Positions 1,821 through 23,579 of a DNA stretch of 64,000 nt are shown piece by piece (the first letter of the stretch is position 1; every line of letters begins with the position of its first letter). Position numbers and translations under genes: made by a program. The DNA lies in the NCBI GenBank assembly GCA_934133005.1, contig CAKPAI010000001.1, positions 298,769-362,768 of the forward strand. Reading direction: 5' to 3'. The stretch comes from an uncultured Clostridia bacterium. GTDB lineage: Bacteria; Bacillota; Clostridia; TANB77; CAG-508. The notes below the pieces were generated by a model, which was not told where the DNA came from, ran no database searches, and was given only the letters and a program-made list of their open reading frames with translations.

Positions 1821-1837
1821 GACCTTCGGGTTATGAG
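1821..1837 (+). repeat. att-core-like direct repeat copy 1 (GACCTTCGGGTTATGAG); proposed left junction of integrative element 1
   Basis: 17/17 identity with 23421-23437. 13/13 with 38598-38610. Lies between last chromosomal-looking gene and first island gene. Confidence 0.6.
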
Positions 1838-1938: not shown

Positions 1939-1979
1939 GGGCATTTTTTGAGAGGATTTTACCCAATTTTTACCCAATT
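1939..1979 (+). repeat. Arm-type direct repeat A1 (GGCATTTT..GAGG..TTTTACCCAATTTTTACCCAATT) ~100 bp inside left core
   Basis: Near-identical ~40-bp copy at ~23260-23299. Contains tandem TTTTACCCAATT x2. Position just inside core is as expected for integrase arm-binding sites. Confidence 0.55.
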
Positions 1980-2065: not shown

Positions 2066-2359
2066 ATGAATAATTTTAGAGAAGTTAATGATAATATTTT
2101 AAGAGATTGGTTAGAATTTAGAGAGGAGACTTTGTGTTGCACTTTAAGTGCTGAGGATAAAAAGCATTTTGTTTATTTTGATGAGATTTCTGGAAAAATT
2201 TTAAAGAATGTTCCAGAACAAAATAAAAAGTATGTCAAGAAACAACTTGATTTGCTTGATGAGAATTTTATGGATTATATTTTCTATTGGAATGAGAAAT
2301 ATTATAGGAATGGTTTTTGTGATGGTGTGCAGCTGATTGGTGGATGTTTTAATAATTAA
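2066..2359 (+). CDS. Hypothetical small protein (97 aa)
   Basis: ORF preceded by GGAGGA RBS (tttggaggatttagattATG). Followed by a 34-bp perfect palindrome. No recognisable domain. Confidence 0.5.
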   Translation: MNNFREVNDNILRDWLEFREETLCCTLSAEDKKHFVYFDEISGKILKNVPEQNKKYVKKQLDLLDENFMDYIFYWNEKYYRNGFCDGVQLIGGCFNN

Positions 2360-2406: not shown

Positions 2407-2461
2407 ATTTTTATGTACTTTTTTCATCTTTTTGAAAAAAGTATCAAAGTAATTGTACAAC

Positions 2462-2487
2462 AAAAGGCGAGTTGATTCTCGCCTTTT
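2462..2487. terminator. GC-rich hairpin AAAAGGCGAGttgattCTCGCCTTTT; bidirectional intrinsic terminator at 3' end of helicase gene
   Basis: 8-bp GC-containing stem with T/A runs on both sides. Overlaps stop of the 2486-5266 minus-strand gene. Confidence 0.6.
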
Positions 2488-5266
2488 ATATTGGATCTAT
2501 TTTTCTTTTAATAAGGATAACATCTTTATTGTCTTCAATATGTTTTATAGTCGATATGATTTTATTTTGGCATTCTGGTGACCAATATATTTTTAATTTT
2601 TCTTTTGCTCTTGTTATTGATGTATAAAAAATGCTATGTGTAATTAGTTCATCTATCTCATTTGTTATTATAACTTTAACAGAATTATATTCCAATCCTT
2701 GTGATTTGTGTATAGAAACAGCATATGCAACTGAAAAAGGTACAATTGTTGTTAAATCTGAATCATCATCCTCGTCAGCGTTTCTATACTTATTAACATA
2801 GAATTTTACAATTGATTTATTATTTTCAGATTCTCCTACCAATTCTAAATCTAAATATTGAATTTCCAATTCATTAATCACTTTATCTATTTCTACTGAA
2901 AACCAAAATCTAAATTCATCCTCTTCTATATCTACGATTCTTCCTTTTAAATTATTATATATTACTGGTGAAAATCTATTAGTATCTCCAAATATAATTG
3001 GATCTCCTACTTTATAAGTACCTAAATCTAGAACTATTGATTTGTTGTTATTGTCACTTTGCAAATAATAATTTATACTATTTATTCCATATAGTCCATC
3101 ATAATTTAGACATAGTATAATTTCATCTTCATCCTGCTTCTTAAATATTTCTTCACCAATTTCTTCTGAAAATTCTTTCTTTACTAACATTTCATCAACT
3201 CTATCATCGCCATTTCTGACCAATTCCCATAAATCTAACAATTCTTGTTTTGTACTTCTCCATGTAAAGTTTAATTCAAATACTGATGTTTGCTTTACTA
3301 ATTTTTTTGATAGTGTAAACCAGTTTCCAAATGTAATAGATTCAATCTGATAAATATCTCCAGCAAGCAATATAGCACTAAAATGTGCTTTTTCTAAAAT
3401 TTGTCTCATATCCGAATTACTAATTATACTACATTCATCAATTATTAAAATGTCGCATTCAGTATCATTATTAGACTCACTAATAAATTTATGTACTGTC
3501 ATAAAATTAGAATTTTGATTCTTTACATTACTCTTTAGATTTTCAACAGCTGAATTTGTATTAGCTAAACATATTTTCTTTTCATTATTATAAAAATATG
3601 TCAAATGTTTAATTAGTGTAGTTTTACCTGTTCCAGCTGCTCCATATATTAAGGCAACTGCACTATTTTCATACATATTTAACAATATATTTTCTTTTTC
3701 TGGACAATTAATCGCGTAAATTCCTTTATTTATAAAACTTTGAAATGATGCTTTATAGCCTTTTATCCCTTTATTTGTCAAGGAATTTAACTTATTAATT
3801 ATATTAATAGTATCATTTTCATATCCATGAATATACAAATTATTATTCTCTATTACCAAGCATCTGTTAGGTTTATGTTTATAATAGATTTTATTATTAT
3901 AAGACTCTACCAATGTTGGAATGTCTCCAAAATTTTTGACTTCATCTATGCTTGTATATAATTTATTATTTTGCTCTGTGTTTTTCTTGACATAACTTGC
4001 CAATAATTCATCATCTCTTCCTTCTATAGGTATTGTCTCTATCAAATCATATCTTGTTGGATTATGATTTATTAATGATGATGCATAAGGCATTTCTTCA
4101 AATGGAATACAACCCCATTGTAAATATAAATCTGATAAAATAGAACAACTATCTGTTGCAAGCTGATTTTTTATGATTCTATTATTGCAATTATATAATA
4201 AGTATCTTAATACAACATTTCCTTTTCTATTATTTTTTATATAATATCTACATTTATCAATTAAGTCTAATATTCCAGTAGTTGTAGAATTATATTTTAT
4301 TTTCTCTTTTGCTTTATCATAATATGTATTATTCATTGTTGCTAAATCTAATAAACTGTATTGTCCTCTTGTTAATAATCTCATAACCTCTAAATATTCT
4401 TTATTATTAGCCTTATAATTTTTATTTATTCCAAAAATTTTATAAAAATTATTTATTTCACATTCTCTTATTGCGACAGACCAATTGTTTATTATATTTA
4501 TTGACATATCTCTTCCAAGAATATTTACTTTTCTTTTAACAATAGATAACTTTATTGAATAATTTGGCATAATATGCATTCTTGTAAATGCTATTATTCT
4601 ATCATACTTATTAACTTTATCTTTAGCTGGTGACAGAGTGACTTCATAATAAATTTTTCCATTAACAAAAAAAGTTTTTATTTTTTGCACATAATATTTA
4701 TCTCCATTGAATTGAGCAGATGTATTAATTGGAACTTGTTTTATTACATCAGCAACTTTTTTATAGTAATCACTAAAAGTACTATCTAAATCAACAGGAA
4801 AATCAGTTATATTATTTAAAATATCTATGTTATAAATTATCTTCATATAATCTTTTAATAATATTAGATATTTATAATATTTAAGCATTAACCTTTCAGC
4901 AGAATCATCATTTTCAACGTAATGTGATCTAGATATTTGTAAATAATAATGAAATCTTTCAATAAATTTTATATTTCCCTTACATTTTATATCATCTAAT
5001 GCTATTCTAACTGTTTTATTATCATAATTAACAGTTTCTGTTTTTCCTGTTAAATATATCTTAACAGCAATATATTCTACAAAAGTTCTTAATGCATTTA
5101 ATAAATTTTGAGATAAAAATCCACGATCATTATCCGAAAATTTATTTATATTTCGTTCAATATTTGAATTAGCTTCCATTATTCTCTTATCTATACTATT
5201 AAAATTATATTTTTCTTCAATTTTTATCATCTTACTTAATCCTTTCTTGTATAATGTAAAAAGCAA
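2486..5266 (-). CDS. Large (926 aa) protein: ~500-aa N-terminal region of unknown function fused to RecD/Pif1-like SF1 helicase (AAA_30 + UvrD_C_2-like)
   Basis: Walker A LIYGAAGTGKTTLIKHL. Walker B ILIIDECSII. C-terminal VSIHKSQGLEYNSVKVII, the characteristic RecD-like UvrD_C_2 motif. N-terminal half has no recognisable motif. Confidence 0.7.
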   Translation of the reverse strand: MLFTLYKKGLSKMIKIEEKYNFNSIDKRIMEANSNIERNINKFSDNDRGFLSQNLLNALRTFVEYIAVKIYLTGKTETVNYDNKTVRIALDDIKCKGNIKFIERFHYYLQISRSHYVENDDSAERLMLKYYKYLILLKDYMKIIYNIDILNNITDFPVDLDSTFSDYYKKVADVIKQVPINTSAQFNGDKYYVQKIKTFFVNGKIYYEVTLSPAKDKVNKYDRIIAFTRMHIMPNYSIKLSIVKRKVNILGRDMSINIINNWSVAIRECEINNFYKIFGINKNYKANNKEYLEVMRLLTRGQYSLLDLATMNNTYYDKAKEKIKYNSTTTGILDLIDKCRYYIKNNRKGNVVLRYLLYNCNNRIIKNQLATDSCSILSDLYLQWGCIPFEEMPYASSLINHNPTRYDLIETIPIEGRDDELLASYVKKNTEQNNKLYTSIDEVKNFGDIPTLVESYNNKIYYKHKPNRCLVIENNNLYIHGYENDTINIINKLNSLTNKGIKGYKASFQSFINKGIYAINCPEKENILLNMYENSAVALIYGAAGTGKTTLIKHLTYFYNNEKKICLANTNSAVENLKSNVKNQNSNFMTVHKFISESNNDTECDILIIDECSIISNSDMRQILEKAHFSAILLAGDIYQIESITFGNWFTLSKKLVKQTSVFELNFTWRSTKQELLDLWELVRNGDDRVDEMLVKKEFSEEIGEEIFKKQDEDEIILCLNYDGLYGINSINYYLQSDNNNKSIVLDLGTYKVGDPIIFGDTNRFSPVIYNNLKGRIVDIEEDEFRFWFSVEIDKVINELEIQYLDLELVGESENNKSIVKFYVNKYRNADEDDDSDLTTIVPFSVAYAVSIHKSQGLEYNSVKVIITNEIDELITHSIFYTSITRAKEKLKIYWSPECQNKIISTIKHIEDNKDVILIKRKIDPI

Positions 5267-5302
5267 AATAATTCTGTAATATAATTACTATTATTTTGCT
5301 TT
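5259..5302. terminator. Hairpin AAAGCAAAATAAT...ATTATTTTGCTTT downstream of fic-like gene
   Basis: 11-bp inverted repeat arms with T-run on minus strand after the stem. Confidence 0.45.
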
Positions 5303-5310
5303 TCTTTAGT

Positions 5311-6246
5311 TTATTTATTTCCAATATAATATTTAATCATTTCTGTGTATTGATCCTGCGCATTTAAACAAGTATCTATTAAATATCCTTTTTCTTTATT
5401 AGTTTGATATTGATTTAGTCCCCTATAATAAAATAGTTTTTCTTTATCTAAAATGATAAATGGTACAATATTATTTTTCAAACATTCTTTAAATGCAATT
5501 ATTCTACCAACTCTACCATTACCATCTTGAAATGGATGTATCTTTTCAAATTTTGCATGAAATTCTATTATTTCATTTATTGTAACTTGTTTCAAAGACT
5601 CATACCATTCTAACAATTTTTTCATATCTCTTTCAACATTTTTAGGATCTGTAGTTTTTAGTCCTCCTACTTCATTAGCTAATTTTTTATAATCTCCCAC
5701 TACAAACCAATCTTTTCTGCTATCTGATGTTCCCTCTTTTAATATTTTGTGAAATTCTTTTATCATCTTTTCAGTTAACTTTTTACTTGCTATATCTAAC
5801 ATATAATCAACTAATTTAAAATGATTAGCCGTTTCTAATACATCATCTAAATCTGTAATAGAATCTTTTTCTGCCAATAAAGTGTTAGTCTCATAAATAT
5901 ATCTAGTCTGATCTTCTGTGAGCTTACTTCCTTCAATATGATTTGTATTATATGCAAATGTAATTTGAGTATTATGATATAGATTTCCTTTTAATTTCAT
6001 ATTTTTTTGTTCTCTTAACACTTCTAAAATATTTATTTTAGATATATCAAAATCATCTTCTTTAATCAATTCATCAACAGAAATTTCAAATATTTCAGCT
6101 AACTTTTTTAATGATTCGATATTAGGTTCTAATGTTCCAGATTCATATTTAGAAACTGTAGCTGGTTTCACTCCTAATGATTCTGCAATTTCAACTTGCG
6201 TCATGTTTTTATTTTCTCTATATAATTTTATTTTTTCTCCTAACAT
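5311..6246 (-). CDS. HTH(XRE)-Fic family protein (Fic/Doc AMPylation-type fold, N-terminal helix-turn-helix)
   Basis: N-term MTQVEIAESLGVKPATVSKYESG (XRE HTH). C-terminal Fic motif IHPFQDGNGRVGR matching HPFx[DE]GNGR. Confidence 0.85.
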   Translation of the reverse strand: MLGEKIKLYRENKNMTQVEIAESLGVKPATVSKYESGTLEPNIESLKKLAEIFEISVDELIKEDDFDISKINILEVLREQKNMKLKGNLYHNTQITFAYNTNHIEGSKLTEDQTRYIYETNTLLAEKDSITDLDDVLETANHFKLVDYMLDIASKKLTEKMIKEFHKILKEGTSDSRKDWFVVGDYKKLANEVGGLKTTDPKNVERDMKKLLEWYESLKQVTINEIIEFHAKFEKIHPFQDGNGRVGRIIAFKECLKNNIVPFIILDKEKLFYYRGLNQYQTNKEKGYLIDTCLNAQDQYTEMIKYYIGNK

Positions 6247-6370
6247 AATAAAAACTCTCCTTTTTGATTATAATAATATTATATCATATCATTTCCAAAA
6301 AAGAAAGTTTTTATTTAATTGTTTTATAATTATTTCTAAAATAGAATCATATATTTTGTTATATACTAAC

Positions 6371-7822
6371 TTAATAAAATAAATTTTCTTTCATTTCAAT
6401 AACCTTTTTATCTATTTCTGAAAAATCATATACAGATGCAAAAATTACTTGATATTCTTTAAAATCACGCTCTAATATCTTTATCATAGCAATAGAAGCA
6501 TTACTTGTTAATTCATTAGTTCGTGGTGAATCAATTATTATAGGTAAATTCAGTCCATATCTATTTTTAATTTCTAATAAATATGCAATCTTAAAAGAAA
6601 ATGACATATGTGTCAAAATTCTTCCTGTTTTGCCTTTTAATTTATTTGTTAATACAAATTTAGAACTATCGCCAATATACTCATCAAATTTTAATTCTTT
6701 GGCATATTTTTTTATAGTATTATAAATTGAATTCAAATACATGTTATTTTCTGATAATATATTATGCAATTCATTCATCAATTTTTGTTTTCTTCTTGTT
6801 AATTGCCCAATTATTTTATCCATTTGTTTTTCATTAATATTGACATCTTTTAGCATCTCATCAACTTCTTCAGCAACAGTTTTTACATTAAATAAAATAT
6901 TTCTATCATTTAGCTCATCTTCAATTTTATTTATTTCGTTTTTAATTTTACCTAAATTTATTTCTAATTCTTTTTTTCTTGTTTCATAGAAAATCTGATT
7001 TTCATTATAATTTAATATATTATCTTTAGCTAGTTTAACGGAATTATCATTAGAAATTTTTACATATATATCTAACTTTTCAAGGTAGTCAACTAATTTT
7101 TTATTATCTTTTAAAATGCCACTAACATCTTTAATATCATTTTTTATTTCAGCCTCTCTTATTTTAAGTAATTTTAATTGACTATATAACTCGTTATCAT
7201 CATTCTTGGTATATGATGTAACTTCTTCAATAATATTTTCACTTTTATATTCCGCAATACTTTTTAGTGATCTATATTTTCGTATTTCATCTTCTATCTT
7301 TTTTATTTCATTATTAATTGAAGAAACATCTTTATCGGATAATGCAGAAATAAAATCTTCTATATTAAATCTGTTTTTTCCTATAATTATTCCTCTATTT
7401 AGAAGAGTCCATCCTTTTTCTTGGTCAATATAAAAAATAGCTAATAAATTATTTAGAATCATAATTTCACTTATGTTAAAAATTTTAGAATGTAGCTCAT
7501 ATAATTGTTCAGGTACTATATAAGTTATTTTCTCATTTTTTTCATTCAAAATAACAATATCTCCTTTTCGTTCAAGTGAATATTGTTGTTCATTTTCTAT
7601 TATATCTATATGTATAAAAAAATCATCAAAAGTCTTTATTCCATCTGTTGCAGGTATGTTATATCCTAGTCCGAATAGTATTGCTCTTAGCAAAGTTGTT
7701 TTTCCTTTTGAATTTTCTTTACTATAAATCAAATTAATCTTATCATCAAAAACAAACTCTCTATATTCATCTTTCCTTTGAATAATAACTTTTCTAATTT
7801 TCATATTTGTTAGCCCTTTCAA
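6371..7822 (-). CDS. lmuB: SMC/ABC-like coiled-coil ATPase; candidate Lamassu LmuB (DUF3732-like)
   Basis: Walker A SKGKTTLLRAILFGLG near N-terminus. ~300 aa of K/E/I/N-rich coiled-coil. C-terminal signature-like KGKTGRILTHMS and Walker B LPIIIDSP. Probable true ATG start at ~7804 (MKIRKV...), 5 nt after upstream stop. Confidence 0.5.
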   Translation of the reverse strand: MKGLTNMKIRKVIIQRKDEYREFVFDDKINLIYSKENSKGKTTLLRAILFGLGYNIPATDGIKTFDDFFIHIDIIENEQQYSLERKGDIVILNEKNEKITYIVPEQLYELHSKIFNISEIMILNNLLAIFYIDQEKGWTLLNRGIIIGKNRFNIEDFISALSDKDVSSINNEIKKIEDEIRKYRSLKSIAEYKSENIIEEVTSYTKNDDNELYSQLKLLKIREAEIKNDIKDVSGILKDNKKLVDYLEKLDIYVKISNDNSVKLAKDNILNYNENQIFYETRKKELEINLGKIKNEINKIEDELNDRNILFNVKTVAEEVDEMLKDVNINEKQMDKIIGQLTRRKQKLMNELHNILSENNMYLNSIYNTIKKYAKELKFDEYIGDSSKFVLTNKLKGKTGRILTHMSFSFKIAYLLEIKNRYGLNLPIIIDSPRTNELTSNASIAMIKILERDFKEYQVIFASVYDFSEIDKKVIEMKENLFY

Positions 7823-8819
7823 ACATTTGCATTATATTTCCTTTTCTTATGAATATTTTTTTTGCAATAATTTTTGAGCAAGCTTTCTCTATAGTTTCCA
7901 TATTGCTATCTTTATTATTTTTAAAAACTATATCGTATATTTCGTTTTCATATTTAATAACAAACTGATTGCTTCTTATTTCTTTATCTTCGATTTTAGC
8001 TTTCATTATTAAATTGCTAATCTTATTATATACATCAAAGTCAGCTTCTTTATAGTTTATTATCCTATCATACGTATCTAATGCTTCAAAAAAAGTTTCT
8101 TCTTCAATTTCCATACTTTCGTCAAACTTTATTGAGTTTCCATCGCCTAATTTTAAGATTAAAAGTCTCCACAAAACATCTTCCTTTTTAAATTTTAATT
8201 TCATATTATTTTGAGTTGCATTATGTAGTGCTTCTGACTCTAACATTTGTAGGAATCTATTTTTATATGGTAGTAAATCCGAACTGATAAAAGTTAAAAA
8301 GTCTTCAATTTTGGCAATTATATATTTCTGTTTTGTTTCTTTATCTTCACCAAAAAAAGGGACTTTAGCAATTATTAATTTATCCCTATTTATGTTCTTT
8401 TGTAATTGATTAAGTTGAATATCAATTTTTTCTTTTGAAGCTAAAGATAATTCATTATATTTGAAAAATGATACTAATTCAAATTCATTTGTTCCAGAGT
8501 TTAATGGGTTCGGTTCTAAATTACTTATATATATTAGGCTTTCTGAATCATTATCATTAACATCTGATAATGATTCCAAAGCCTTTCTTAATTTTGTTGA
8601 ATATGAACTCGTATCACCATCATTAATATTTTGTTTTGATTTTGCTTGTGCATAAATTTTTTTACTATTATTTAATGAAATTTCAATATCTTCCTTTTCT
8701 CCTTCTATCTTCATTTCTTTAAATTTTCCAAAATATTTTATCATTAAATATATAGCTATATTAATTTGAAATTGCCATCCAAAAGCACTTGCACTTGCAT
8801 TTCTATTTATAGCTTTCAT
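7794..8819 (-). CDS. lmuA: PD-(D/E)xK-type nuclease-like protein; candidate Lamassu LmuA (DUF4297/Cap4-nuclease-like N-terminus)
   Basis: N-terminal ASAFGWQFQINIAIYLMIKYF followed by IEGEKEDIEISLNN...YAQAKS, a G-aromatic-x-aromatic-Q then E-x-E-D then Q-x-K pattern. Directly upstream of and operonic with the SMC-like ATPase. Confidence 0.45.
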   Translation of the reverse strand: MKAINRNASASAFGWQFQINIAIYLMIKYFGKFKEMKIEGEKEDIEISLNNSKKIYAQAKSKQNINDGDTSSYSTKLRKALESLSDVNDNDSESLIYISNLEPNPLNSGTNEFELVSFFKYNELSLASKEKIDIQLNQLQKNINRDKLIIAKVPFFGEDKETKQKYIIAKIEDFLTFISSDLLPYKNRFLQMLESEALHNATQNNMKLKFKKEDVLWRLLILKLGDGNSIKFDESMEIEEETFFEALDTYDRIINYKEADFDVYNKISNLIMKAKIEDKEIRSNQFVIKYENEIYDIVFKNNKDSNMETIEKACSKIIAKKIFIRKGNIMQMFERANKYEN

Positions 8820-8904
8820 TTATATTACCTTCTACTCATAAAAATTTAAATTTGGCAAAATTTTAGTAATTTTAATTATTTTTATTATAAGTCAATTTTT
8901 AAAT

Positions 8905-9924
8905 TTATTCTTCCACTTCAATTACAGGTATAAATAATTTCTTTAATTTTATGGTATCTTTAAATTTCTCTGACATATCATCATAGTATTTTAAAATTAA
9001 ATCTACTAATTCACTTCCATTAATAGATTTTATTATTGGATGCTTTTCTAAATATATTTTAGCATTTTTTGCATAATCTGATAAAGTTACAAATAAACCA
9101 TAATCTCCTTCGTCCATAGTTCCTTTTAATGATTGTACTGTAGATTCTGTGATATTTCCATCTTGGCTTTTTACTTGTACAATAATTCTTGGTGGCAATT
9201 CATCTTTATATGCAATAATGTCTTTTCCATTATCTCCTCCGTGAGGACTAATTTTTGTTCTATATCCCATTGCATTTAATAAATCTGCGACAACATCCTC
9301 CAATTCATATCCTTTAAAATTTTTATTTAACTCTTTTAATACATAATCTTTGGTACTTTCTAATATAGTCTCTGAAGTCGCAAATACATTATCGTCATTT
9401 TCTTGATTATTTTTTACCTTCTTTCCATTGTGAAGAGCATTTATAAATTCATCTGCATAATGCCTTACTTGAAAAAATGATAAAAATGATCCTATTTCAT
9501 ATAATGCACCTTGCGAAAATTCTTCTCTTGGTAATTTTTTTAACCATTTTACTTTTCTCTTTTGATTATATTCTGTTTCTCTACTATCAAAGAAATATTC
9601 CCCTTCAATTTGTCCAATATTAATCATTCTATTAAATTTTGTTGGATATATCACATAATCTCCTATTTTAGCTTCATTAACAAATCTAAATAGTTGTCCT
9701 GCAGAACCTGCTATAGATTGTTTAGATTTGTTTGGATAAACTTTATCATAGGCCTTATAATAAGATTCTCTATCTGTATCTATTGTGGATAAATCTCCCA
9801 TTTCATGCCAACCTATAGCTATGACTTCATCTTGTAATAATAAATTTTCATTATTCGTATTATGAATTCCCCAAACTATTATTTCCTCACTCATTATTTT
9901 TCCTTTTATGTTATATTTAATCAC
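8905..9924 (-). CDS. mrr: Type IV (modification-dependent) restriction endonuclease Mrr (Mrr_N winged-helix + Mrr_cat PD-(D/E)xK)
   Basis: Catalytic-domain motif ISPHGGDNGKDIIAYKDELPPRIIVQVKSQ, matching GxDxGxD ... VQxK of Mrr_cat. N-terminal ~110 aa resembles Mrr_N. Confidence 0.8.
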   Translation of the reverse strand: MIKYNIKGKIMSEEIIVWGIHNTNNENLLLQDEVIAIGWHEMGDLSTIDTDRESYYKAYDKVYPNKSKQSIAGSAGQLFRFVNEAKIGDYVIYPTKFNRMINIGQIEGEYFFDSRETEYNQKRKVKWLKKLPREEFSQGALYEIGSFLSFFQVRHYADEFINALHNGKKVKNNQENDDNVFATSETILESTKDYVLKELNKNFKGYELEDVVADLLNAMGYRTKISPHGGDNGKDIIAYKDELPPRIIVQVKSQDGNITESTVQSLKGTMDEGDYGLFVTLSDYAKNAKIYLEKHPIIKSINGSELVDLILKYYDDMSEKFKDTIKLKKLFIPVIEVEE

Positions 9925-10070
9925 TTAAATATGACATATTCTCCTTTTATTCTACTTTTTATATTATTTTAACCTATATTTCTTATTAATGTTTTATTAT
10001 ACTTGAAACTTCTTTGTATTTATACTTTAGCTTGCTCATTTTATATATTTGTTCAACTTAAATTTTTCTC

Positions 10071-14012: not shown

Positions 14013-14991
14013 TTTTTCTACTCCTATTTAATAATGTAGTATATTTTATTGGTCTATTAGTTTCCCAATTCATTATTTTACAATAAATTCCATTATGTTT
14101 TTTATAATTATTTTTTTCACAGCCTATACAACTTATTTTTTGTGGCACATCTCCAAATAATGACATATTAATTACTTCATCTGTTTTGCAACTATATGGA
14201 ACTACAAATTTTGTGCCGTCCATTTGCCACACATTCCAAGAAATAATTTTCGCAATCTCTATAATATCTTCAATAAGTGGTTTTTCTTTAAATTTGTATA
14301 AATAATTATCTATAAATGTATACAACAAATTTTCTCTTGCAATCAACAAATTATCTCCTTGAAATTCAAAACCATAAGTATTTTTATATGCTTTCTGTAC
14401 CCAATCCATCCATTCTAACTTATCATTTACATTTTCATTTATAACTCTTAATTTTCTATCTAATAATCCTATCCTATTATTTACTTCTATAATATCACCT
14501 GAAACATTATCATATCTACTTACCAAATATGGTGCTTCTCCACAGGATACTTCCAATCTAGTATTGTAAACATAATCTTGCCATGTTTTATTCGTTTTAG
14601 TTGGAAAATTTATTTTTTCCTTATTTGAAATCCAACTTTTATCACTCTCAATATTAAAAAAACTATCTTCCCCTGACCAAGCATTATCTATTAAATTATT
14701 TTGTGAATTACAAATCCAAGATGGAGTAAAAACTTCAGCCTTATCTCTTATTCTCTTTTCTTGTTCTTTTTTACTTTTCTTTACTCTAGGTTTAATTACA
14801 TTTCCATTATAGCCTGTAATATTTTCAATTTTTATATTATCTTTAACTCCAAATCCTATACCTTTATCTCTATAATTATCAGTAGCCCAAATAATATTGT
14901 TATTTGTCGTATGATCTTTAAGAAGGATATGTAATAATTCATAATTTGTTTTTAGCAATATATTTTCCTGTATATCTGCACTATTTTCCAT
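13999..14991 (-). CDS. Hypothetical 330-aa protein translationally coupled (start/stop overlap) to the helicase-MTase fusion; Cys-rich C-terminus
   Basis: Its stop overlaps the ATG of the downstream 1313-aa gene. Contains AEVFTPSWICN but no MTase motif I/IV. C-terminal CIGCEKNNYKKHNGIYCKIMNW cluster. Function unassigned. Confidence 0.5.
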   Translation of the reverse strand: MENSADIQENILLKTNYELLHILLKDHTTNNNIIWATDNYRDKGIGFGVKDNIKIENITGYNGNVIKPRVKKSKKEQEKRIRDKAEVFTPSWICNSQNNLIDNAWSGEDSFFNIESDKSWISNKEKINFPTKTNKTWQDYVYNTRLEVSCGEAPYLVSRYDNVSGDIIEVNNRIGLLDRKLRVINENVNDKLEWMDWVQKAYKNTYGFEFQGDNLLIARENLLYTFIDNYLYKFKEKPLIEDIIEIAKIISWNVWQMDGTKFVVPYSCKTDEVINMSLFGDVPQKISCIGCEKNNYKKHNGIYCKIMNWETNRPIKYTTLLNRSRKNGNK

Positions 14992-15094
14992 ATTTTCCTC
15001 CCTTCAAATCAGTATAAACATTCTATACTATTTTATATCACAAATTATTCTTTTTCTCAATATAATTCTTGATATTTCTCTCTATTATATATCT

Positions 15095-15718
15095 TTAATT
15101 TCTTCCAAAAAAATGATCATAAGGATAACTAGCTTTAATATATTTTTCAGTTAATTCCATCTTATACTTTTCTAACAATTCCAAATATTTTTGTTTAAAA
15201 ACATTTTTACAAATCCACTCAACACCTTTACTAGAAATAATAACCTTGCCATCAACTAAAAATTTATATTGCTCAAATCCATTATCACACATTTTTTTAA
15301 CTGCTTTTCTAACAGTAATATCTCTTCTATCAAAATACTCACATAGTTGTTTTATTTTCATATCTTCATTCCACCAATTTTTATTATGTTCTACTTTTAA
15401 TAATTCTTCATATTGTCTAATTCTATCTTCAAAAAAATCCACATCAGCATCTATTAAAGATTTTTCTTTTTGAAAATACACTTGAGTTAACCATACATAT
15501 CCTTCTGCTAAAATAAAATATTTCCTACTTTTTACTTTCTCACTCCTCCATCTGCAAGTTGGATGTTTTTTTAGCATAACTTCTATAGCTTTTCTTAAAT
15601 CTTTATGTGTTATTTCTTTTCCATATTTAGTAGTAACACCTAGTAATTGAAATCTCTTTAAGATTTTATTATATGATAAGAAAATACTATCTAAAACTTG
15701 CTCTGAATCCATTTTCAT
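15095..15718 (-). CDS. Phage-related regulatory/DNA-binding protein (possible antirepressor / KilA-C-like); low-confidence family call
   Basis: 207 aa, W/K-rich, sits immediately upstream of phage-type replication genes. No catalytic motifs. Call is by context and general resemblance only. Confidence 0.3.
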   Translation of the reverse strand: MKMDSEQVLDSIFLSYNKILKRFQLLGVTTKYGKEITHKDLRKAIEVMLKKHPTCRWRSEKVKSRKYFILAEGYVWLTQVYFQKEKSLIDADVDFFEDRIRQYEELLKVEHNKNWWNEDMKIKQLCEYFDRRDITVRKAVKKMCDNGFEQYKFLVDGKVIISSKGVEWICKNVFKQKYLELLEKYKMELTEKYIKASYPYDHFFGRN

Positions 15719-16032
15719 TTTTCATCACTCCTACTTTCTTAATTTTATTAATGCTAGTCTACGTAGCATTGATAGTTGGCAAAATTTATTTTGCTCCGAA
15801 TAATGAGGCATTTTTTAATGCCCAATATTCGCCAGCGTGGTGTTTTGACACCCTTTTTGCTGTTTAGGGCAACATGCCCTAATACCCTTTTGGGCTCTCC
15901 GAGGGATACTTTTGATATAAATTTTTTCAAAATATTTTCAAAAAAGTTCAAATTTCTAAAATAAAAACTTGAACTTTTTTGCTTTACTTTTGTTTAAAAA
16001 TATATTATAATATTTTTAGATTTTGGATTAAG

Positions 16033-16887
16033 TTAGCATTTAGTTTTATCGCTTTTGCTAGCTTTTTCTTTTTCATTTATATCATTTTTTATGAGTGAAA
16101 TTCCATAACACATTTTGTATAAAATTTGTATGAATTCTTCTGCTAATTTCCTATTTTCAATAGCAATTTTCTCCAACAATTCTTCTCTTGTATATCTAGT
16201 TGTAATTACTATTGGTAACTCGTTTTCATATCTATTGTTAATAATTCTATACAACTTTTCTAAAGCCCATTTAGTTATTGTTTCACTCCCAAAATCATCG
16301 ATAATTAACATATCAACATTAGAATAAAGTTCCATAATTTCTGACTCTGTCGTAACAGTTTTATTAAAAGATTCTTTTATTCTATCTGTTATAGATCTAG
16401 TCCTTTCCAATAATGCAATTTTTTTATTTCTAATAATCTCATTAGCAATACTTGCTGCTAAATGAGTGTTTTCATATCCTATACTTCCATATATAATAAT
16501 TCCATCTTTAACTTTATTTTCTATACATAAATGTGTATATTTCATTAATGTTGTTATTGTTTCTTGGTTATCTTTAAATCTATCAAAATTTAAAAAATTA
16601 CAATATTTTAATTTCTTTTTTATACAACCATCCTTATATATTTTATTTATAATTTCTCTATACTTTCTTTGTTTTTCTTTTTCATTTTGCTTTGAATCAT
16701 ATTGTTTCCAAAATGCAATTGCTTCACTACAATCACACCTTTCATATTCTACCATATCGTGATTAACATTTGCATAAAGATAACTTAATCCTAATGGCTT
16801 TAATTTTTTATTGCAAAATCCACATTTTGCACCTTCATTGGTGATAACTTTAAAATTCACATTTTCTAAATCCACTTCTATTCTCAT
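16033..16887 (-). CDS. DnaC/IstB-like AAA+ helicase loader with N-terminal Zn-finger (phage replication protein)
   Basis: Walker B-like MLIIDDFGSE. LPIVITTRYTREEL (DnaC box). N-terminal CGFCNKK...CDCSE cysteine pairs. Confidence 0.65.
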   Translation of the reverse strand: MRIEVDLENVNFKVITNEGAKCGFCNKKLKPLGLSYLYANVNHDMVEYERCDCSEAIAFWKQYDSKQNEKEKQRKYREIINKIYKDGCIKKKLKYCNFLNFDRFKDNQETITTLMKYTHLCIENKVKDGIIIYGSIGYENTHLAASIANEIIRNKKIALLERTRSITDRIKESFNKTVTTESEIMELYSNVDMLIIDDFGSETITKWALEKLYRIINNRYENELPIVITTRYTREELLEKIAIENRKLAEEFIQILYKMCYGISLIKNDINEKEKASKSDKTKC

Positions 16888-17359
16888 CTCCTTCTTTAGC
16901 TAATATATTTTTAATCTTATTTTCTTCTTGTGTGTTATCCAACGTTATTGTAACGTTACTTTCTTCTTTTTCACTTTTCAACTTTTCACGATATTTTTGT
17001 TGTCTAATTCTATTTTGTTCTTTATATTTTTCATATGGCTCAATGCTTTGATACTTGTCCCAATTTTTAATTTTATATGCTTCATCTTCTACAATTAGCA
17101 TATTTAATTCTAGAAATTTTTGAATAATTTTTTCGATTTTTTTCTTAGATTTTCCCATAATCTTTGAAAAATTTTCTATTGTCATTGGTTTATTATTGCC
17201 TATTACTAATTTTCCATTTCTATTGCATTCTACAGCAATAATTAATAATTGAATCCATACTCTAAAATATGTATCTCCATCTGGTTCTCTTAACAGTATT
17301 TGAATTTTCCTATTTGAAAATATTTTTAATTCTATTTTCAACCATTGTAAACTATACAT
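16850..17359 (-). CDS. Phage replisome organizer N-terminal domain protein (DnaD-like)
   Basis: MYSLQWLKIELKIFSNRKIQILLREPDGDTYFRVWIQLLIIAVECNRNGKLV matches the conserved WIKL..IF...KI..L...P.GD...WI.LL.A..N..G.L pattern of phage_rep_org_N. Confidence 0.7.
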   Translation of the reverse strand: MYSLQWLKIELKIFSNRKIQILLREPDGDTYFRVWIQLLIIAVECNRNGKLVIGNNKPMTIENFSKIMGKSKKKIEKIIQKFLELNMLIVEDEAYKIKNWDKYQSIEPYEKYKEQNRIRQQKYREKLKSEKEESNVTITLDNTQEENKIKNILAKEGDENRSGFRKCEF

Positions 17360-17387
17360 ATCCTCCTTTCCTCGCTTTCTTTGTAAT

Positions 17388-17633
17388 CTAACTTATAGAT
17401 TTTTGTTCCATATTTTTTAAATATTCATCTAGCGCTTGTACTCTAAATAAATACTTTCCACCAACTTTAGAGCATGGTATTTGCTTTCTTCTTACTAATT
17501 GATTTATCAACCAGTAAGATACACCTAAATACTCTGCTGCTTCTTTCATTGTTAGTGTCGTCCTTTGAATTTTTGGTAATTCCATAATATCACCTCCTGT
17601 TTTTTGAAATTTAGTATTGACTTTTGTTAACAT
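17388..17633 (-). CDS. xis: Excisionase-family helix-turn-helix DNA-binding protein (Xis/MerR-like); probable true start ~17585 (MELPKIQ...)
   Basis: LTMKEAAEYLGVSYWLINQLVRRKQIPCSKVGGKYLFRVQALDEYL is a typical excisionase-family HTH. Strong RBS caggaggtgatattATG before internal Met. Confidence 0.65.
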   Translation of the reverse strand: MLTKVNTKFQKTGGDIMELPKIQRTTLTMKEAAEYLGVSYWLINQLVRRKQIPCSKVGGKYLFRVQALDEYLKNMEQKSIS

Positions 17634-17733
17634 TTGTATTATATTGTCAATAGTTAACTTTGTAAATACTTTTGGGTTTATTTTGATAGCAGGTTAACTT
17701 TAAGTGAATTTATAAACTGTTAACGGAGGAATT
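17586..17733. promoter_or_regulatory. Divergent promoter/operator region with four GTTAAC palindromes (approx. 17625, 17653, 17692, 17718) and a TTGACT -35
   Basis: Four copies of GTTAAC (three as TTGTTAAC/GGTTAAC/AGTTAAC + CTTT) within ~100 bp between divergently transcribed xis-like gene and 17734 gene. Same motif recurs twice in the int promoter. Confidence 0.5.
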
Positions 17734-18783
17734 ATGAATAAAATAAAATATGATGAACCTATAAATATCTTTGTTTCAACAAATGAAGAATTTACCCATA
17801 AGGCATTTTTATGCGGAAAAACAAAATCATCAAAACCTAAGTATTATGATTTAAAAGATGGAGATACTGGCTATTTTACTATTGATACTATAACTAACAC
17901 ACAACCACTTTGTAGCGAACTCATCTCTTTCTTAAATTGTGATTTTGATAATATTGATGAATGTTTTATGTGGTTTACTAAGTTTTTCACTTCATACATA
18001 ATATATACTGGAGAAGAAGATATAAATAAGTTTGAAATTAATAAATTTTATTCTTTTAGTAAAGTAAAAAATTTATTTAAAAAATATTATGAAGAAATAA
18101 AAAAAGACTCAAAACATGGTCAAAAACTATTATCAAAATTTGTTGATTATATATTTAACCTTGATAACATTAAAGAAATAAATGACTTTAGTACAAAAAT
18201 AAGATTTTATATTTATTATAATTCTCATTTTAAGGAACTTGATAGATTTATAAATAATCATTTTTCTATGCCACAAGGCTTTTCTTTTAGAACTATTTCT
18301 GATATTAAAGGAAATACAGAAAAAGATTTAATAAAATTCTTTAAGTCTAAATCCTCTTATGAAATTGAACCAAATTATAGCACTAGTAACGAAAACATTT
18401 ATGAAATTTTATATGTTACATTGTTTCAATTCGTACTTAATAATAAATATCTTATCAAGAAATGTAAAAATTGTGGTAAATACTTTATAACAGATAATCC
18501 ACGTATTAATTACTGTAATAATTTATACAAAGAAAAACAAACTTGTAGAGATATCGGAAACCAAATTGCTCAAAGAGTTAAGCAAGAAAATGAGATTGTT
18601 TATGGTAAATATCGTAAGATTTATGCAAAAAAAGCAATGTTAGTAAAACGTAATCCTGATATAGAAGTTTATAAGATTGATTATGAAAATTGGAAAAAAG
18701 AAGCTAAAGAATTTATGGATGCCATTAGATCTGAGGAGAAAACTTATAAAGAATTTGATGAGTGGTTGGAAGAAAACAAATAA
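17734..18783 (+). CDS. Hypothetical protein with C-terminal CxNCxxYF...YCN...TC[RK]D[IV]G zinc-finger-like domain; paralog of 27455-28774
   Basis: C-terminal KKCKNCGKYFITDNPRINYCNN...KQTCRDIGNQ aligns with ECENCHQYFIPVNRKDEIYCNR...EKTCKDVGAM of the element-2 protein. Both are transcribed divergently from an excisionase-like HTH gene. Confidence 0.55.
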   Translation: MNKIKYDEPINIFVSTNEEFTHKAFLCGKTKSSKPKYYDLKDGDTGYFTIDTITNTQPLCSELISFLNCDFDNIDECFMWFTKFFTSYIIYTGEEDINKFEINKFYSFSKVKNLFKKYYEEIKKDSKHGQKLLSKFVDYIFNLDNIKEINDFSTKIRFYIYYNSHFKELDRFINNHFSMPQGFSFRTISDIKGNTEKDLIKFFKSKSSYEIEPNYSTSNENIYEILYVTLFQFVLNNKYLIKKCKNCGKYFITDNPRINYCNNLYKEKQTCRDIGNQIAQRVKQENEIVYGKYRKIYAKKAMLVKRNPDIEVYKIDYENWKKEAKEFMDAIRSEEKTYKEFDEWLEENK

Positions 18784-18809
18784 AGGAAAAGTTTATTGCT
18801 TTTCCTTAT

Positions 18810-19712
18810 TTATATAATCATTTCATAATCTATAATATCTCTTACATAATTTTCAAGTAAATTGTCATCAGAAATATATTCGCCCCATTCACAATCACAT
18901 GATATTAATTGATGCCCACATATAGGACACATTTCCCAGTCACATCCATCTAGATGATTTTCTCCTTTTTTAGCTCCACAATCGCCACAGTACTTGCAAT
19001 CAATTGAATAATATGAATCATTCGTATTGAACTTATAATTATAAAATTTCTCTTCATCTCCATATTTTATTCTCTTATATGCATTATTATCTTTTGTAAG
19101 TATATACGAATAGTATTGATTTTCCTCAATATCCTCTTTAAACTGTTTTAATTGTTTTTTAGTAAACTCAATTCCTCTAAAAACCTCAAAATCCTTTGCA
19201 TTATTTAAAATATTCTCAATAACATATTTATATTCTTCATTTTGATATTTATGGTGAAAAATTCTATAGTGTAATTTTGTATAAAGCTCAAATAACTTAC
19301 AATATTTTCTTTTTATTTCAATCGAATTAGCATTTACTTTAAAATGAATAAAATTATTTCTTATATTACCACAAGTAATCAATAAATCAGTTTCATTTTG
19401 TGAAAACAATTTTGGCTTTAAATTTTGCAATCTTGCTATCGATTTCGAATATGTTATAGTTTTTGCTTTATCGCTAATTTTCTCATCAATATTTTCATAA
19501 ATCAAACTTTCGTTAATTCTAAACAGAGCTTCTTTTAATAGTAATTCAATTGCTTGAACTAATAATATAAATGTTGTTTTCCACTTTCTTTTTTCTTCTA
19601 TAGAATTTCTATCTTCATCATGGCTTTCATCATATCCTATCTTTTTATAATAGTATAATGTTTCTTTAATATAATCATATGAATTCTCTATTAAATTTAA
19701 TTCAAAATTCAT
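18810..19712 (-). CDS. HEPN-like (Rx4H) protein with Cys/His-rich C-terminal zinc-ribbon cluster; third gene of SLATT-SMODS operon
   Basis: Helical N-terminal region LLVQAIELLLKEALFRI ... ITCGNIRNNFIHF (R-N-x-F-x-H = HEPN Rx4-6H motif). C-terminal DCKYCGDCGAKKGENHLDGCDWEMCPICGHQLISCDCEWGE. Starts 21 nt after SMODS stop. Confidence 0.45.
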   Translation of the reverse strand: MNFELNLIENSYDYIKETLYYYKKIGYDESHDEDRNSIEEKRKWKTTFILLVQAIELLLKEALFRINESLIYENIDEKISDKAKTITYSKSIARLQNLKPKLFSQNETDLLITCGNIRNNFIHFKVNANSIEIKRKYCKLFELYTKLHYRIFHHKYQNEEYKYVIENILNNAKDFEVFRGIEFTKKQLKQFKEDIEENQYYSYILTKDNNAYKRIKYGDEEKFYNYKFNTNDSYYSIDCKYCGDCGAKKGENHLDGCDWEMCPICGHQLISCDCEWGEYISDDNLLENYVRDIIDYEMII

Positions 19713-19733
19713 CTTATATTTTCTCGCTTTCTT

Positions 19734-21032
19734 TTAAACCCTTATTGGAACATCAATTTTTCCTTTAGCTATACATACATTATTTTTTATTATATATGCT
19801 TCAACATAATGGTCACCATCAAATTTAGAATATTCAGTATGTGTATAACTATTTGTTTCTAAAATTTGTCCCCTAATATCGTTTTTTTGCTTAGCTAAAT
19901 CTCCTTCGTTTTTTACTTTCCAAAGAATTTTATCTATACCATAATTCATAATTTCTGCTTTATTTACTATGTAAAATTCTAATTTTTTATCCCTCTTTAG
20001 AAACACATGATTTGTTATCATATCCCTTAAACTAGCTGGGCGGAATCCATCTTGTGTTACTATACAATCCAATTTTAAATTTAATACTACATCAACAGGA
20101 TATTCATCTTCAATAAATTCTTCTGTATGATCATAAGTGTATTGTTCTTTTTCTTCTTCCTCATTTTGTGCTTTAGGAAATTCTTTTCCAAAAAGATTTC
20201 TTAATTCTTTATTTAAATTTTTAGAATCCTCATTTAAATCTTTAATTTTGTTATAAGCTTTTTTGGCTTTTTTTACGAATTTTCCTCCATCATCATTATA
20301 TATTTTTTGATTACTTCCTATTGCAAACCAATAACTCTGATCTTTATCTTCATTCTTTAAGAACTCAAAAATATCTTTAACTAGATTTAAATAATCTTCA
20401 TATCCACAATTTTGATATTCCTTCTTCTTTTCAGGGAAATTATTAGTTAAAGTATCAATTAATAAGCCTTTAAATTTAAAACCTTTTTTGTTTTTCCATG
20501 ATCTAAGCATATGACATATATTTGTAAAATTTCCATTTGTGTCATCATCTTTTTTCTTACATTCGTCTATTTCTGGAATTGGATTTGTAATCTTCCAGCT
20601 TCCTCCATCATTTGTATCTGGATATTTAAATGAATCATCATTTTGCTTAAATCCTGGAACTAATTCTACTGTGTATTTTGTAAAGTTTATTACTACAACT
20701 TGTCCATCACCTTTTAAGTCTGTATTAGGATATTTTTCTTTCAATACATTTTTTACTTCTTGTAATAATTGAGATTGTTTATTTCCATCATTATCATTTA
20801 TTCTATCATAAACACTCTTAGGTAGATTAAAAAGTATGTCCAAATCACTTGTATTTTTTATTGCTGTAGTTCTACCAACTGAACCTACAATATACATATT
20901 AGATTCGTCATCATCTATGTCATAATAATGTTTATTTAATTTTTTTGTAATGCCTTTTACTGTTGTTTGCATATCTTCAAAATTATCTAGTTTTATGTTG
21001 TTACAGAAATCACAAAAATCATCTTTAATCAT
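19734..21032 (-). CDS. Pol-beta-superfamily nucleotidyltransferase, SMODS/CD-NTase-like (432 aa)
   Basis: GSVGRTTAIKNTSDLDILF = GS-x11-DhDh nucleotidyltransferase active-site motif. ~230-aa C-terminal extension. ATG immediately abuts stop of upstream 2TM gene. Confidence 0.55.
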   Translation of the reverse strand: MIKDDFCDFCNNIKLDNFEDMQTTVKGITKKLNKHYYDIDDDESNMYIVGSVGRTTAIKNTSDLDILFNLPKSVYDRINDNDGNKQSQLLQEVKNVLKEKYPNTDLKGDGQVVVINFTKYTVELVPGFKQNDDSFKYPDTNDGGSWKITNPIPEIDECKKKDDDTNGNFTNICHMLRSWKNKKGFKFKGLLIDTLTNNFPEKKKEYQNCGYEDYLNLVKDIFEFLKNEDKDQSYWFAIGSNQKIYNDDGGKFVKKAKKAYNKIKDLNEDSKNLNKELRNLFGKEFPKAQNEEEEKEQYTYDHTEEFIEDEYPVDVVLNLKLDCIVTQDGFRPASLRDMITNHVFLKRDKKLEFYIVNKAEIMNYGIDKILWKVKNEGDLAKQKNDIRGQILETNSYTHTEYSKFDGDHYVEAYIIKNNVCIAKGKIDVPIRV

Positions 21033-21578
21033 TTATTTTCCCTTTCTAAGCTCTACAGGTAAATAGCTATCTATTTCTTCATCTGAAAATGTATTATCTT
21101 TTTGTATTTTTAAAGCTTTTGATGCTTTTTTTACAGCTCTATCACATGTAGATAAGCTTTTCTTGCATATATTATGATATTTTAATAATATCTCATCTCT
21201 CTTCTTAGTAGCTTCATCCAATTCTATCTTATTTAATTTTATATCTGATAATACACAAATGGTTTCATTTTTTAATTGTAAAAATTCTAATGCGCTTAAT
21301 TTATGACTATCTCTTGATTCTTTTAAATTATATGTTTTATAAAAAGTATTTATAAATAGACATATAGCTGAAAAAACAGTGGTAATTATCTTTAAAGCAA
21401 CTTCATCAATAAAAAAGCAAGTTAATAATCCTGATGTAGTAATTGCTGAAGATAATATCTTGCAAAATTCTAAAACATTAAACCAAAAAGAATTAATATC
21501 ACTATGTTTTTCATGAATTTTATGGTTCCATACTATTGATGCAAAAATTTGTCTTATCTCTGATTCTATTATATTCAT
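21033..21578 (-). CDS. Two-TM helix protein, SLATT-like candidate membrane effector (181 aa)
   Basis: Two adjacent hydrophobic helices (FNVLEFCKILSSAITTSGLLTCFFI ; ALKIITTVFSAICLFINTFY) followed by ~100-aa helical/coiled C-terminus. Directly upstream of the nucleotidyltransferase. Confidence 0.45.
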   Translation of the reverse strand: MNIIESEIRQIFASIVWNHKIHEKHSDINSFWFNVLEFCKILSSAITTSGLLTCFFIDEVALKIITTVFSAICLFINTFYKTYNLKESRDSHKLSALEFLQLKNETICVLSDIKLNKIELDEATKKRDEILLKYHNICKKSLSTCDRAVKKASKALKIQKDNTFSDEEIDSYLPVELRKGK

Positions 21579-21699
21579 ATAAATTCCTCCTATATATTTG
21601 TCGTATTATATCATATTTTCTGTAAATAATCCAGTATTTTCAAAGGATTTTAGCTTTCAAATTTTCGACATTTTTTTACATTTTATTACATTTACAAAT

Positions 21700-21823
21700 T
21701 TTTTAAGTTTATTTTTGAAATCTATTGCAATTTGTTAACTATTATTGTATAATATTTTTGTTAACATTTTAATTAAACACTCCTCCCACCCATAGGCATA
21801 CTTGAAAGGAGGTGAAATAAGTA
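21700..21823 (+). promoter_or_regulatory. Integrase promoter: TTGCAA -35 / TATAAT -10 (approx. 21726/21748) flanked by two TTGTTAAC repeats; GGAGGTG RBS
   Basis: tctattgcaatttgttaactattattgtataatatttttgttaacat, then gaaaggaggtgaaataagtaATG. Confidence 0.55.
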
Positions 21824-23017: not shown

Positions 23018-23259
23018 TTTGAACTTTTTTCTAATTTTCACAAATTACAAATTTTCACGATTTTTTATAGAAGGCAATTCAAAAAAACAAGTATTACTAG
23101 GCAGATGAATTTGAAAGGCAAAGGAGCATATGTTTATATGTGACTGCGTTTCAAATGAAATCTAACGACGTAACACGCAGTTTATTTTTTGAATTTTCCC
23201 ATTGCCTTTTATAATGTATAAAAAGTATAAAATTTTAATGAATTTTTATTGATATTTAT

Positions 23260-23576: not shown

Positions 23577-23579
23577 CTT

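Follow-up and report, generated by a model that had tools for sequence, protein, structure and literature searches.

A defence-carrying integrative island with two cargo hotspots and a predicted relaxase-less mobilization module in an uncultured gut Clostridia bacterium

The stretch analysed (the window) comprises 64,000 nucleotides from an uncultured Clostridia bacterium (GenBank assembly GCA_934133005.1, contig CAKPAI010000001.1, positions 298,769 to 362,768, forward strand) and holds an integrated element of ~21.6 kb, Element 1 (1821-23437). Judged from its genes and those of its relatives, Element 1 appears to be a defence-carrying integrative mobilizable island with a two-hotspot architecture and a predicted relaxase-less mobilization module. 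The explanation favoured here, which is probably correct, is that of a site-specific island of the integrative mobilizable element (IME) type: a relaxase-less hitcher with a putative origin of transfer (oriT) and with defence cargo in two slots. Coordinates of all features are collected in Table 1; related loci are designated by L numbers.

Element 1 is flanked by an exact 17-bp direct repeat, GACCTTCGGGTTATGAG. This attachment (att) core was spotted by reading the sequence and was then confirmed by mismatch search (two matches only in the window at ≤3 mismatches; 0 expected by chance); a generic repeat finder gave nothing useful for att repeats in the window. Two exact copies of a 22-bp arm-type repeat, TTTACCCAATTTTTACCCAATT, stand ~120-140 bp inward from the ends. 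The exact repeat, the arm-type repeats and the integrase support the assignment of Element 1 as a discrete mobile element. An earlier sequence-only reading had given 2486-21578 as the range of the cargo; the genes in that range were borne out. The true left junction is the att core at 1821-1837, not 2486, and the integrase and the right junction (23421-23437) fall outside the range. Beyond the element the outer flanks consist of housekeeping genes: HSP20, choloylglycine hydrolase and GatCAB on the left; AdhE, LeuRS, AddB and OGG on the right.

Members of the family have their canonical target in the initiator tRNA-fMet gene, namely in its 3' half. Of 60 related loci scanned, 13 have an intact tRNA-Met(CAT) gene 300-430 bp past the integrase, with the core inside the tRNA; the 42-nt right end of Element 1 equals the 3' half of that gene letter for letter, and in relatives the gene reads CGCGGGG...GGGCTCATAACCC...CCCCGCAACCA. 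In 12 metagenome loci the core and the left end come after tRNA 3' halves that are intact, decayed or absent. The initiator-tRNA 3' half at 23396-23437 is joined to no 5' half; neither ARAGORN nor Rfam gave an intact tRNA in the window, and the genome must therefore carry a tRNA-fMet gene elsewhere. After excision the attP junction is predicted to read ...CGAACTTAC-GACCTTCGGGTTATGAG-CGAGACCTGACCAC... and the matching empty site ...GGTTAGACT-core-AAATGGAATG....

Relatives of the integrase (≥82% identity) were found in 80 species-representative genomes, 55 of which also show the adjacent backbone. The hosts are nearly all uncultured Clostridia or Clostridium metagenome-assembled genomes (e.g., Clostridium sp. 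CAG:273 and CAG:343) from humans, mice, rabbits, goats and chickens; a few short contigs of the family are titled Bacilli, Erysipelotrichaceae or Lactobacillus johnsonii. The conserved order, by tblastn of the window proteins, is Int(+) ... DUF6076(+), Xis(-), RepOrg(-), DnaC(-), p207(-) ..., where p207 is a protein of 207 aa considered below. Turnover of cargo, for which comparative genomics had been proposed as a check in the sequence-only reading, was seen at two hotspots across the 55 species loci. The limits of hotspot 1 are set by L020 and L023, in which DUF6414 and an AAA ATPase stand in place of the cassette of the cyclic-oligonucleotide-based antiphage signalling system (CBASS) of the window; in the 55 loci this hotspot contains 118 open reading frames (ORFs) that form 91 clusters at 60% identity, and the 91 non-redundant proteins match 328 PADLOC models, including ThsB, AbiL, AriA, PycC, HEC-01A, PtuA, DolB and several PDCs. 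At hotspot 2, homology to variants with other cargo ends at ~15013 and ~2443; the alternatives found there on near-identical backbones are type I restriction-modification (R-M), type III R-M with DUF5655, Fic and nSTAND, and type III R-M with an MmeI-like methylase and HATPase. The systems swapped at the hotspots across the family include Thoeris, Pycsar, PARIS, Septu, AbiL, Dodola and R-M. The locus is a defence island: several unrelated systems lie side by side, and related genomes differ in what they carry at the corresponding place. In the p207-proximal part of hotspot 2, R-M methylases and nucleases prevail across species, and in three cassettes the methylase gene is the first downstream of a conserved non-coding block of 187 nt; such an order would, speculatively, suit early protection after entry.

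In the window (~25% G+C) the range 2486-21578 contains 15 real genes, all but one on the minus strand. Models of PADLOC defence systems match 10 of the 15, and defence genes or candidates account for ~80% of the bases; the dense defence island claimed between the left junction and the integrase was thereby confirmed by the very PADLOC search of translated ORFs that had been suggested for it. The interruptions named there, a phage-type replication module and an excisionase-like helix-turn-helix (HTH) protein, are also present (Phage_rep_org_N, DnaC/IstB-like and HTH_17), together with p207 and DUF6076. The proposal that unassigned genes are good candidates for new defence functions is weak: a PADLOC model exists for every gene of the variable slots, and the genes without a match (p207, DUF6076 and a gene for a 97-aa protein) belong to the conserved backbone, not to the cargo.

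The cargo genes, all on the minus strand, make up seven systems in two slots. Their profile matches (Pfam, PADLOC) are near full length, so that the calls reflect neither chance nor pseudogenes, and the catalytic motifs are whole (Fic, CD-NTase, DEAH, NPPY and Walker A). PDC-S53 helicase: Pfam AAA_30, Viral_helicase1 and UvrD_C_2; Walker A at residue 542. HTH-Fic protein: Fic motif HPFQDGNGR, intact, at residue 237. PDC-M46 pair (6371-8819): Lamassu-like, with weaker LmuB matches as well; no match of either protein in Pfam or NCBIfam. Restriction fusion of 1313 aa: type IIG/ISP-like, DEAH at 282 and NPPY at 1001; at the N-terminus a weak T5orf172/GIY-YIG-like match only (E 0.007); no relatives in the PDB. 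The 330-aa protein always accompanies this helicase-methylase, and the pair recurs in L047 (92% and 86% identity); the methylase label of the 330-aa protein comes from PADLOC alone, no Pfam domain, NPPY-like/(D/N/S)PP(Y/F) motif or PDB relative being found, and it may not be a methylase. The CBASS is of type I, the CD-NTase adjoining its effector with neither Cap2/Cap3 nor HORMA/TRIP13 genes; it would act by abortive infection through a SLATT pore.

The backbone, as read from its gene content and that of its relatives, looks like that of an IME that lost its relaxase, rather than that of a phage satellite. Element 1 has its own integration/excision module and att sites; no relaxase was found in 1821-23437, and no type IV secretion or mating-pore module is present, all Element 1 genes being accounted for. 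Integrative elements of the iOriT class possess an oriT but no relaxase, and defence genes are described in its vicinity (Ares-Arroyo et al., bioRxiv 10.64898/2026.01.13.699239); Element 1 agrees with this class in being att-delimited, integrase-bearing and free of both relaxase and mating-pore genes. A replisome organiser with DnaC is listed as a known maintenance module for IMEs of Firmicutes, Tn6104 and the streptococcal ones among them (PMC5704250). Seven distant relatives with integrases 82-84% identical (L089, L090, L092-L094, L096 and L105) carry a relaxase gene, which follows DnaC; in L092, an element at an intact tRNA-fMet, the genes after DnaC match Pfam ParB_N, MobA/VirD2 relaxase (PF03432) and HTH_26. 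In the sub-family of the window this position is held by p207 and the 187-nt block.

No match of p207 was obtained in Pfam, PADLOC, PHROGs or NCBIfam. Its AlphaFold2 (AF2) model, of medium confidence (pLDDT 70), consists of two winged-helix domains, for which Foldseek returned generic winged-helix/HTH folds only from the PDB and BFVD (E>0.003), and no TerS. Its family is small: a profile search through 1.84 billion representative proteins yielded 186 representative clusters. On two contigs, L128 (68 kb) and L130 (300 kb), a p207-like gene heads an operon in which a small ORF and a PF03432 relaxase gene follow; a similar p207-like/relaxase operon is found in L122, a NikA-like gene comes after the p207-like gene in L123, and in L127 the p207-like gene is the last in an Xis-AAA_25 operon adjoining an integrase. 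Upstream of the L128 and L130 operons there are genes for an ArdC-type antirestriction protein and an N6_N4 methylase (L128:4733-7721; L130:4689-7720), an arrangement that looks like a conjugative leading region; the operon of L122 is likewise preceded by ArdC and a methylase.

The 187-nt block, situated between a terminator and the p207 ribosome-binding site, is 82-100% identical at the nucleotide level in >40 loci, whereas the adjoining DnaC-like proteins are 42-60% identical. Its hairpins covary: pairing holds in 97.8% of cells, versus 33-51% with the partners slid by 1-3 columns; changes on both sides were counted in 31 cells versus 10±2 in shuffles. With a covariance model the core of the block was found directly upstream of p207-like genes, in L126 at E 5e-15; the core of L122 shows compensatory differences, read by eye. 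The classical position of an oriT is directly upstream of a relaxosome operon. Since the core takes this position before the p207-like/relaxase operons, the block is predicted to be an oriT, with p207 as its accessory DNA-binding protein. A 65-aa ORF within this region (15754-15951) was rejected as a gene: it is uncalled in public contigs, and 1-nt indels in homologues break the frame. In L033 (5192-5257) the conserved block contains an insertion of ~70 nt with a long GC-rich hairpin.

A number of findings speak against the account of a relaxase-less hitcher. The covariance matches in L122, L128, L129 and L130 are weak (19-24 bits, E ~1e-3). A MobC-domain fusion, P0361, was discarded as strong evidence, being a singleton on a 4-kb contig with close relatives that lack the domain; the weight of the argument now lies with the operons of L128 and L130. 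Neither a helper element nor a cognate relaxase turned up in this genome, and the relaxase of a second integrative element in the window, Element 2, is 35% identical to the block-associated relaxase of L122. A mimic of the Element 2 oriT inside Element 1 was sought and dismissed, with chance matches of 11-25 bp only and no copy of the putative oriT region of Element 2. Adverse, too, are the missing tRNA 5' half of the window copy and the fact that no empty site was seen in this species. As to the cargo, five of the seven systems (PDC-S53, S04, M46, S02 and S64) are PDC candidates, models that issue from a guilt-by-embedding screen and are called untested by their authors (bioRxiv 10.1101/2024.01.29.577857); an anti-phage activity of these five is presumed from the models and the company they keep.

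The strongest of the competing explanations, unlikely but deserving of serious weight, accepts the same island and takes the block for a regulatory RNA (leader or small RNA) serving p207 or the cargo, transfer being achieved by generalized transduction, transformation or co-excision with Element 2. The block could equally be a 5' leader RNA of p207 or a small RNA: its structure is specific to one strand, the sense strand having the G-U pairs; at one stem position 20 of 27 sequences have G-U, which suits RNA better than single-stranded DNA; and the place between terminator and ribosome-binding site suits a leader. A required small RNA is reported in the mobilization module of SGI1 (PMC9299015). 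Against a regulatory RNA stand the location of the core immediately upstream of the L128/L130 relaxosome operons and the lack of any Rfam family for the block. Co-excision is favoured by the proximity of Element 2 (~140 bp) with its NikA/MobC and relaxase genes; identical Element 1 backbones are, however, also found without Element 2.

A phage satellite similar to the phage-inducible chromosomal islands (PICIs), induced by a helper phage, replicated in phage fashion, packaged in helper capsids and armed with defence cargo as in PICIs and P4, is improbable, and the satellite-like backbone of the sequence-only reading was not upheld. The integrase at one end and the specific att site are features also of PICIs, the DUF6076/Xis pair is divergent and regulatory-looking, the replication family is phage-associated, defence genes in hotspots are reported for satellites (PMC9122126), and 21.6 kb would fit a capsid; p207 beside a conserved site could in principle even be a pac/cos recognition pair, and a mimic of a helper cos or pac site may be present. 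In place of pri-rep and an Stl/Str pair, however, Element 1 has a replisome organiser with DnaC, and DUF6076 with an HTH_17 Xis, the organiser being just 33-37% identical (aa) to those of Firmicutes temperate phages. By Pfam and PHROGs no terS, capsid-remodelling (cpm), capsid, portal, ppi or pri-rep gene and no Stl-type or repressor-type HTH gene is present in Element 1, and the modelled fold of p207, a generic HTH, is unlike small terminases. Megablast of the backbone against 50,697 phage records gave no match, and against plasmid records a 62-bp Fic fragment only. In IMG/VR one related locus was found, L106 (integrase 82% identical; family layout by ORF sizes only); it lacks p207, and a search of IMG/VR with p207 returned nothing. 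Relatives that carry relaxases, and p207 homologues that head relaxase operons, likewise tell against a satellite.

Recent spread between species is evident from the backbone, which is near-identical where the flanks are not: 15013-23437 (8.4 kb) is 99.5-100% identical in at least six right-flank contexts, homology ending exactly at the core end, while flanks comparable with the window chromosome are just 78-88% identical. A public collection lists the identical integrase in 109 of its indexed blocks. In L003 a copy of Element 1 disrupts a homologue of the ASCH-like gene of the window (39324-39707) at a site that is partly core-like. The uninterrupted ASCH-like site in the window matches the att core at ~9 of 13 positions (cf. 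L003:11598-11771), which suggests that the integrase can also use secondary sites. Tandem arrays occur: in several genomes the core is followed on its right by the left end of a further member of the family (a 97-aa homologue or an S53-like helicase). An immobilised remnant, namely a fixed and vertically inherited defence locus whose diversity elsewhere arose by homologous recombination between islands, is accordingly hard to credit: it accords with the lack of an empty site in this species (23 of 23 contigs for each of three exact left-flank proteins, HSP20 and a 134-aa protein among them, carry the island with the same left-end cargo), with a window copy that does not restore the tRNA, the 5' half being missing on the right, with the lack of a relaxase and with cassette swaps sharply bounded at conserved backbone genes, but is contradicted by perfect 17-bp repeats, by int and xis that are intact and of full length, and by the 99.5-100% backbone identity in unrelated flanks, the ASCH-like gene included.

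Returning to the IME-type hitcher, its course can be sketched as follows. Int and Xis would excise and integrate Element 1, and the replisome organiser and loader would maintain the excised circle, to judge by the gene families. The ParB_N-relaxase-HTH module of relatives would have been replaced here by the 187-nt block and p207, so that Element 1 would keep an oriT together with an oriT-binding accessory protein; transfer would proceed by the borrowed relaxase and mating pore of a co-resident conjugative or mobilizable element, in the manner of iOriT hitchers. The two fixed slots, between DUF6076 and int and downstream of p207, take interchangeable cassettes. A further step, put forward tentatively and with more doubt than confidence, is that the block and p207 form an undescribed minimal mobilization module that hijacks MobA/VirD2-type relaxases of unrelated elements, with R-M methylases first in the leading region, and that, together with DUF6076, they define a new family of hitchers.

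Table 1. Features of Element 1, its cargo and the adjoining Element 2 in the window.
Feature	Position	Strand	Remarks
attL core	1821-1837		GACCTTCGGGTTATGAG; left boundary of Element 1
Left arm-type repeat	1958-1979	+	TTTACCCAATTTTTACCCAATT; 22 bp, probable integrase arm site
97-aa Cys-rich protein	2066-2359	+	conserved left-end backbone gene
Cargo hotspot 2	2444-15012	-	~12.6 kb; begins just past p207
PDC-S53 candidate	2486-5266	-	SF1B/RecD-like helicase with long N-terminal region; PADLOC PDLC05035, 1160 bits, full length
HTH_3-Fic protein	5311-6246	-	PDC-S04 8e-108; SoFic 2e-24
PDC-M46B	6371-7822	-	LmuB/SMC-like ATPase; PADLOC 9e-135
PDC-M46A	7794-8819	-	PADLOC 4e-59
Mrr_cat nuclease	8905-9924	-	type IV-restriction-like; Pfam Mrr_cat 5e-24; PDC-S02 5e-123
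1313-aa restriction fusion	10071-14012	-	ResIII DEAH helicase + Eco57I-type N6A methylase; REase_MTase_IIG 4e-40
330-aa partner	13999-14991	-	PADLOC MTase_II 5e-129; first in cassette 10071-14991, overlaps the fusion
p207	15095-15718	-	207 aa, two winged-helix domains (model); proposed relaxosome-accessory/oriT-binding protein
Conserved non-coding block	15719-15905	-	187 nt, 5-6 hairpins; candidate oriT
Terminator-like hairpin	15939-15981	-	closes the xis-rep operon
DnaC/IstB-like helicase loader	16033-16887	-	Pfam; PHROGs DnaC-like loader
Replisome organiser	16850-17359	-	Pfam Phage_rep_org_N; PHROGs replisome organiser
HTH_17/Tn916-Xis-like excisionase	17388-17633	-	65 aa in public gene calls
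DUF6076 protein	17734-18783	+	divergent from xis; conserved backbone
Cargo hotspot 1	18792-21679	-	between DUF6076 and int; HEPN-like protein + type I CBASS in the window
HEPN-like/zinc-finger protein	18810-19712	-	Rx4H motif and Cys-rich tail; PDC-S64 1.6e-13
CD-NTase	19734-21032	-	SMODS + AGS_C domains, 2e-163; GS..DLD motif intact
SLATT_4 effector	21033-21578	-	two transmembrane segments; 5e-51
Tyrosine integrase	21824-23017	+	Pfam Phage_integrase + SAM_3
Right arm-type repeat	23278-23299	+	exact second copy of TTTACCCAATTTTTACCCAATT
3' half of initiator tRNA-fMet	23396-23437	-	element-borne, 42 nt; ends in attR core
attR core	23421-23437		second copy of GACCTTCGGGTTATGAG; right boundary of Element 1
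Element 2	~23575-35130		second integrative element; ~140 bp from Element 1

Among the remaining backbone genes, DUF6076 has a confident AF2 model (pLDDT 83) with four invariant cysteines in a zinc-ribbon-like site; no informative structural neighbour and no literature were found for it. The divergent pair of DUF6076 and HTH_17 excisionase occurs in both elements of the window (17734-18783; 27455-28774) and family-wide. DUF6076 is possibly a regulator; it may be a conserved zinc-binding protein, without structural relative, placed where a master regulator would sit. The 97-aa protein gave no match in Pfam, PADLOC or PHROGs; in seven loci (L033, L044, L051, L061, L069, L080 and L086) a homologue (50-73% identity) lies just to the right of a neighbouring element's att core, which places it at the left end of the element that follows in a tandem array.

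Element 2 contains genes for a KAP-family NTPase (weak PifA/QatA matches), DUF6076, HTH_17, a 641-aa protein, NikA/MobC, a MobA/VirD2 relaxase, a 140-aa protein and a tyrosine integrase of its own. Element 2 is thus an IME whose cargo, the KAP NTPase, is defence-like; it has the DUF6076/Xis module in common with Element 1. Upstream of its mobC-like gene, 31173-31444 contains many GTTACA / TGTTACAAC motifs in both orientations, which look like iterons or oriT repeats. The ~137 bp to the right of the attR core of Element 1, after which Element 2 begins, are common to L002 and L008; as both of these lack Element 2, the stretch is an older flank or a remnant.

Element 1 was compared with the systems known to resemble it. 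With the Firmicutes IMEs (streptococcal IMEs and the Clostridioides difficile element Tn6104; Guedon et al. 2017, PMC5704250) it has in common an integrase with excisionase, a replisome organiser with DnaC, the absence of mating-pore genes and R-M passengers, and close members of its family have a MobA/VirD2 relaxase; it differs in its missing relaxase, in a tyrosine integrase acting at initiator tRNA-fMet and in its two defence hotspots, and DUF6076 and p207 are not described for those IMEs in the text consulted. The iOriT islands resemble it in their att-delimited form, their integrase, the lack of relaxase and mating-pore genes, and defence genes beside an oriT, which in Element 1 is a candidate; unlike them, Element 1 has p207 and a replication module, its oriT is deduced, and it resides in uncultured gut Clostridia instead of six nosocomial species. 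PICIs, including the Staphylococcus aureus pathogenicity islands (SaPIs), and P4-like satellites (Rousset et al. 2022, PMC9122126) likewise have a terminal integrase, an excisionase, a replication module and variable defence genes in fixed slots, but Element 1 is devoid of packaging or capsid-hijack genes, of pri-rep and of an Stl-/AlpA-type regulator, and no link to a phage was found.

The integrase-associated defence islands and hotspots of E. coli and Pseudomonas, and defence loci on mobile elements integrated in chromosomes (PMC10121019, PMC10250203 and PMC10201445), also gather unrelated systems on an integrated element at a tRNA-type site, with varying content; they belong to another host phylum and element family, whereas the slots of Element 1 are bounded within ~100 bp by conserved backbone. 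Islands of the SGI1/MGI type (PMC9299015 and PMC8409611) depend on a conjugation helper and carry a small mobilization module with a non-coding element, features that Element 1 would share; their proteins are unrelated to those of Element 1, and SGI1 encodes an atypical relaxase, MpsA.

That defence islands reside on integrative mobile elements is well established, and the concepts are left unchanged by the present case. What it adds is a pair of defence hotspots with precise limits, present in at least 55 species-level genomes of gut Clostridia that have small genomes. In P2/P4 and in E. coli islands, comparable slots have proved rich sources of new immune systems. The hotspots lend independent guilt-by-association support to the PADLOC candidates PDC-S53, S04, M46, S02 and S64, and Element 1 would furnish a Firmicutes example for a view put forward recently, in which many genomic islands regarded as 'immobile' are hitchers without a relaxase. 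It is predicted that p207 binds the 187-nt block and that a MobA/VirD2 relaxase nicks it. Should the more tentative reading of a new family of hitchers hold, that family would at the same time supply a collection of defence cassettes, ready for use, from a clade without cultured phage-host systems.

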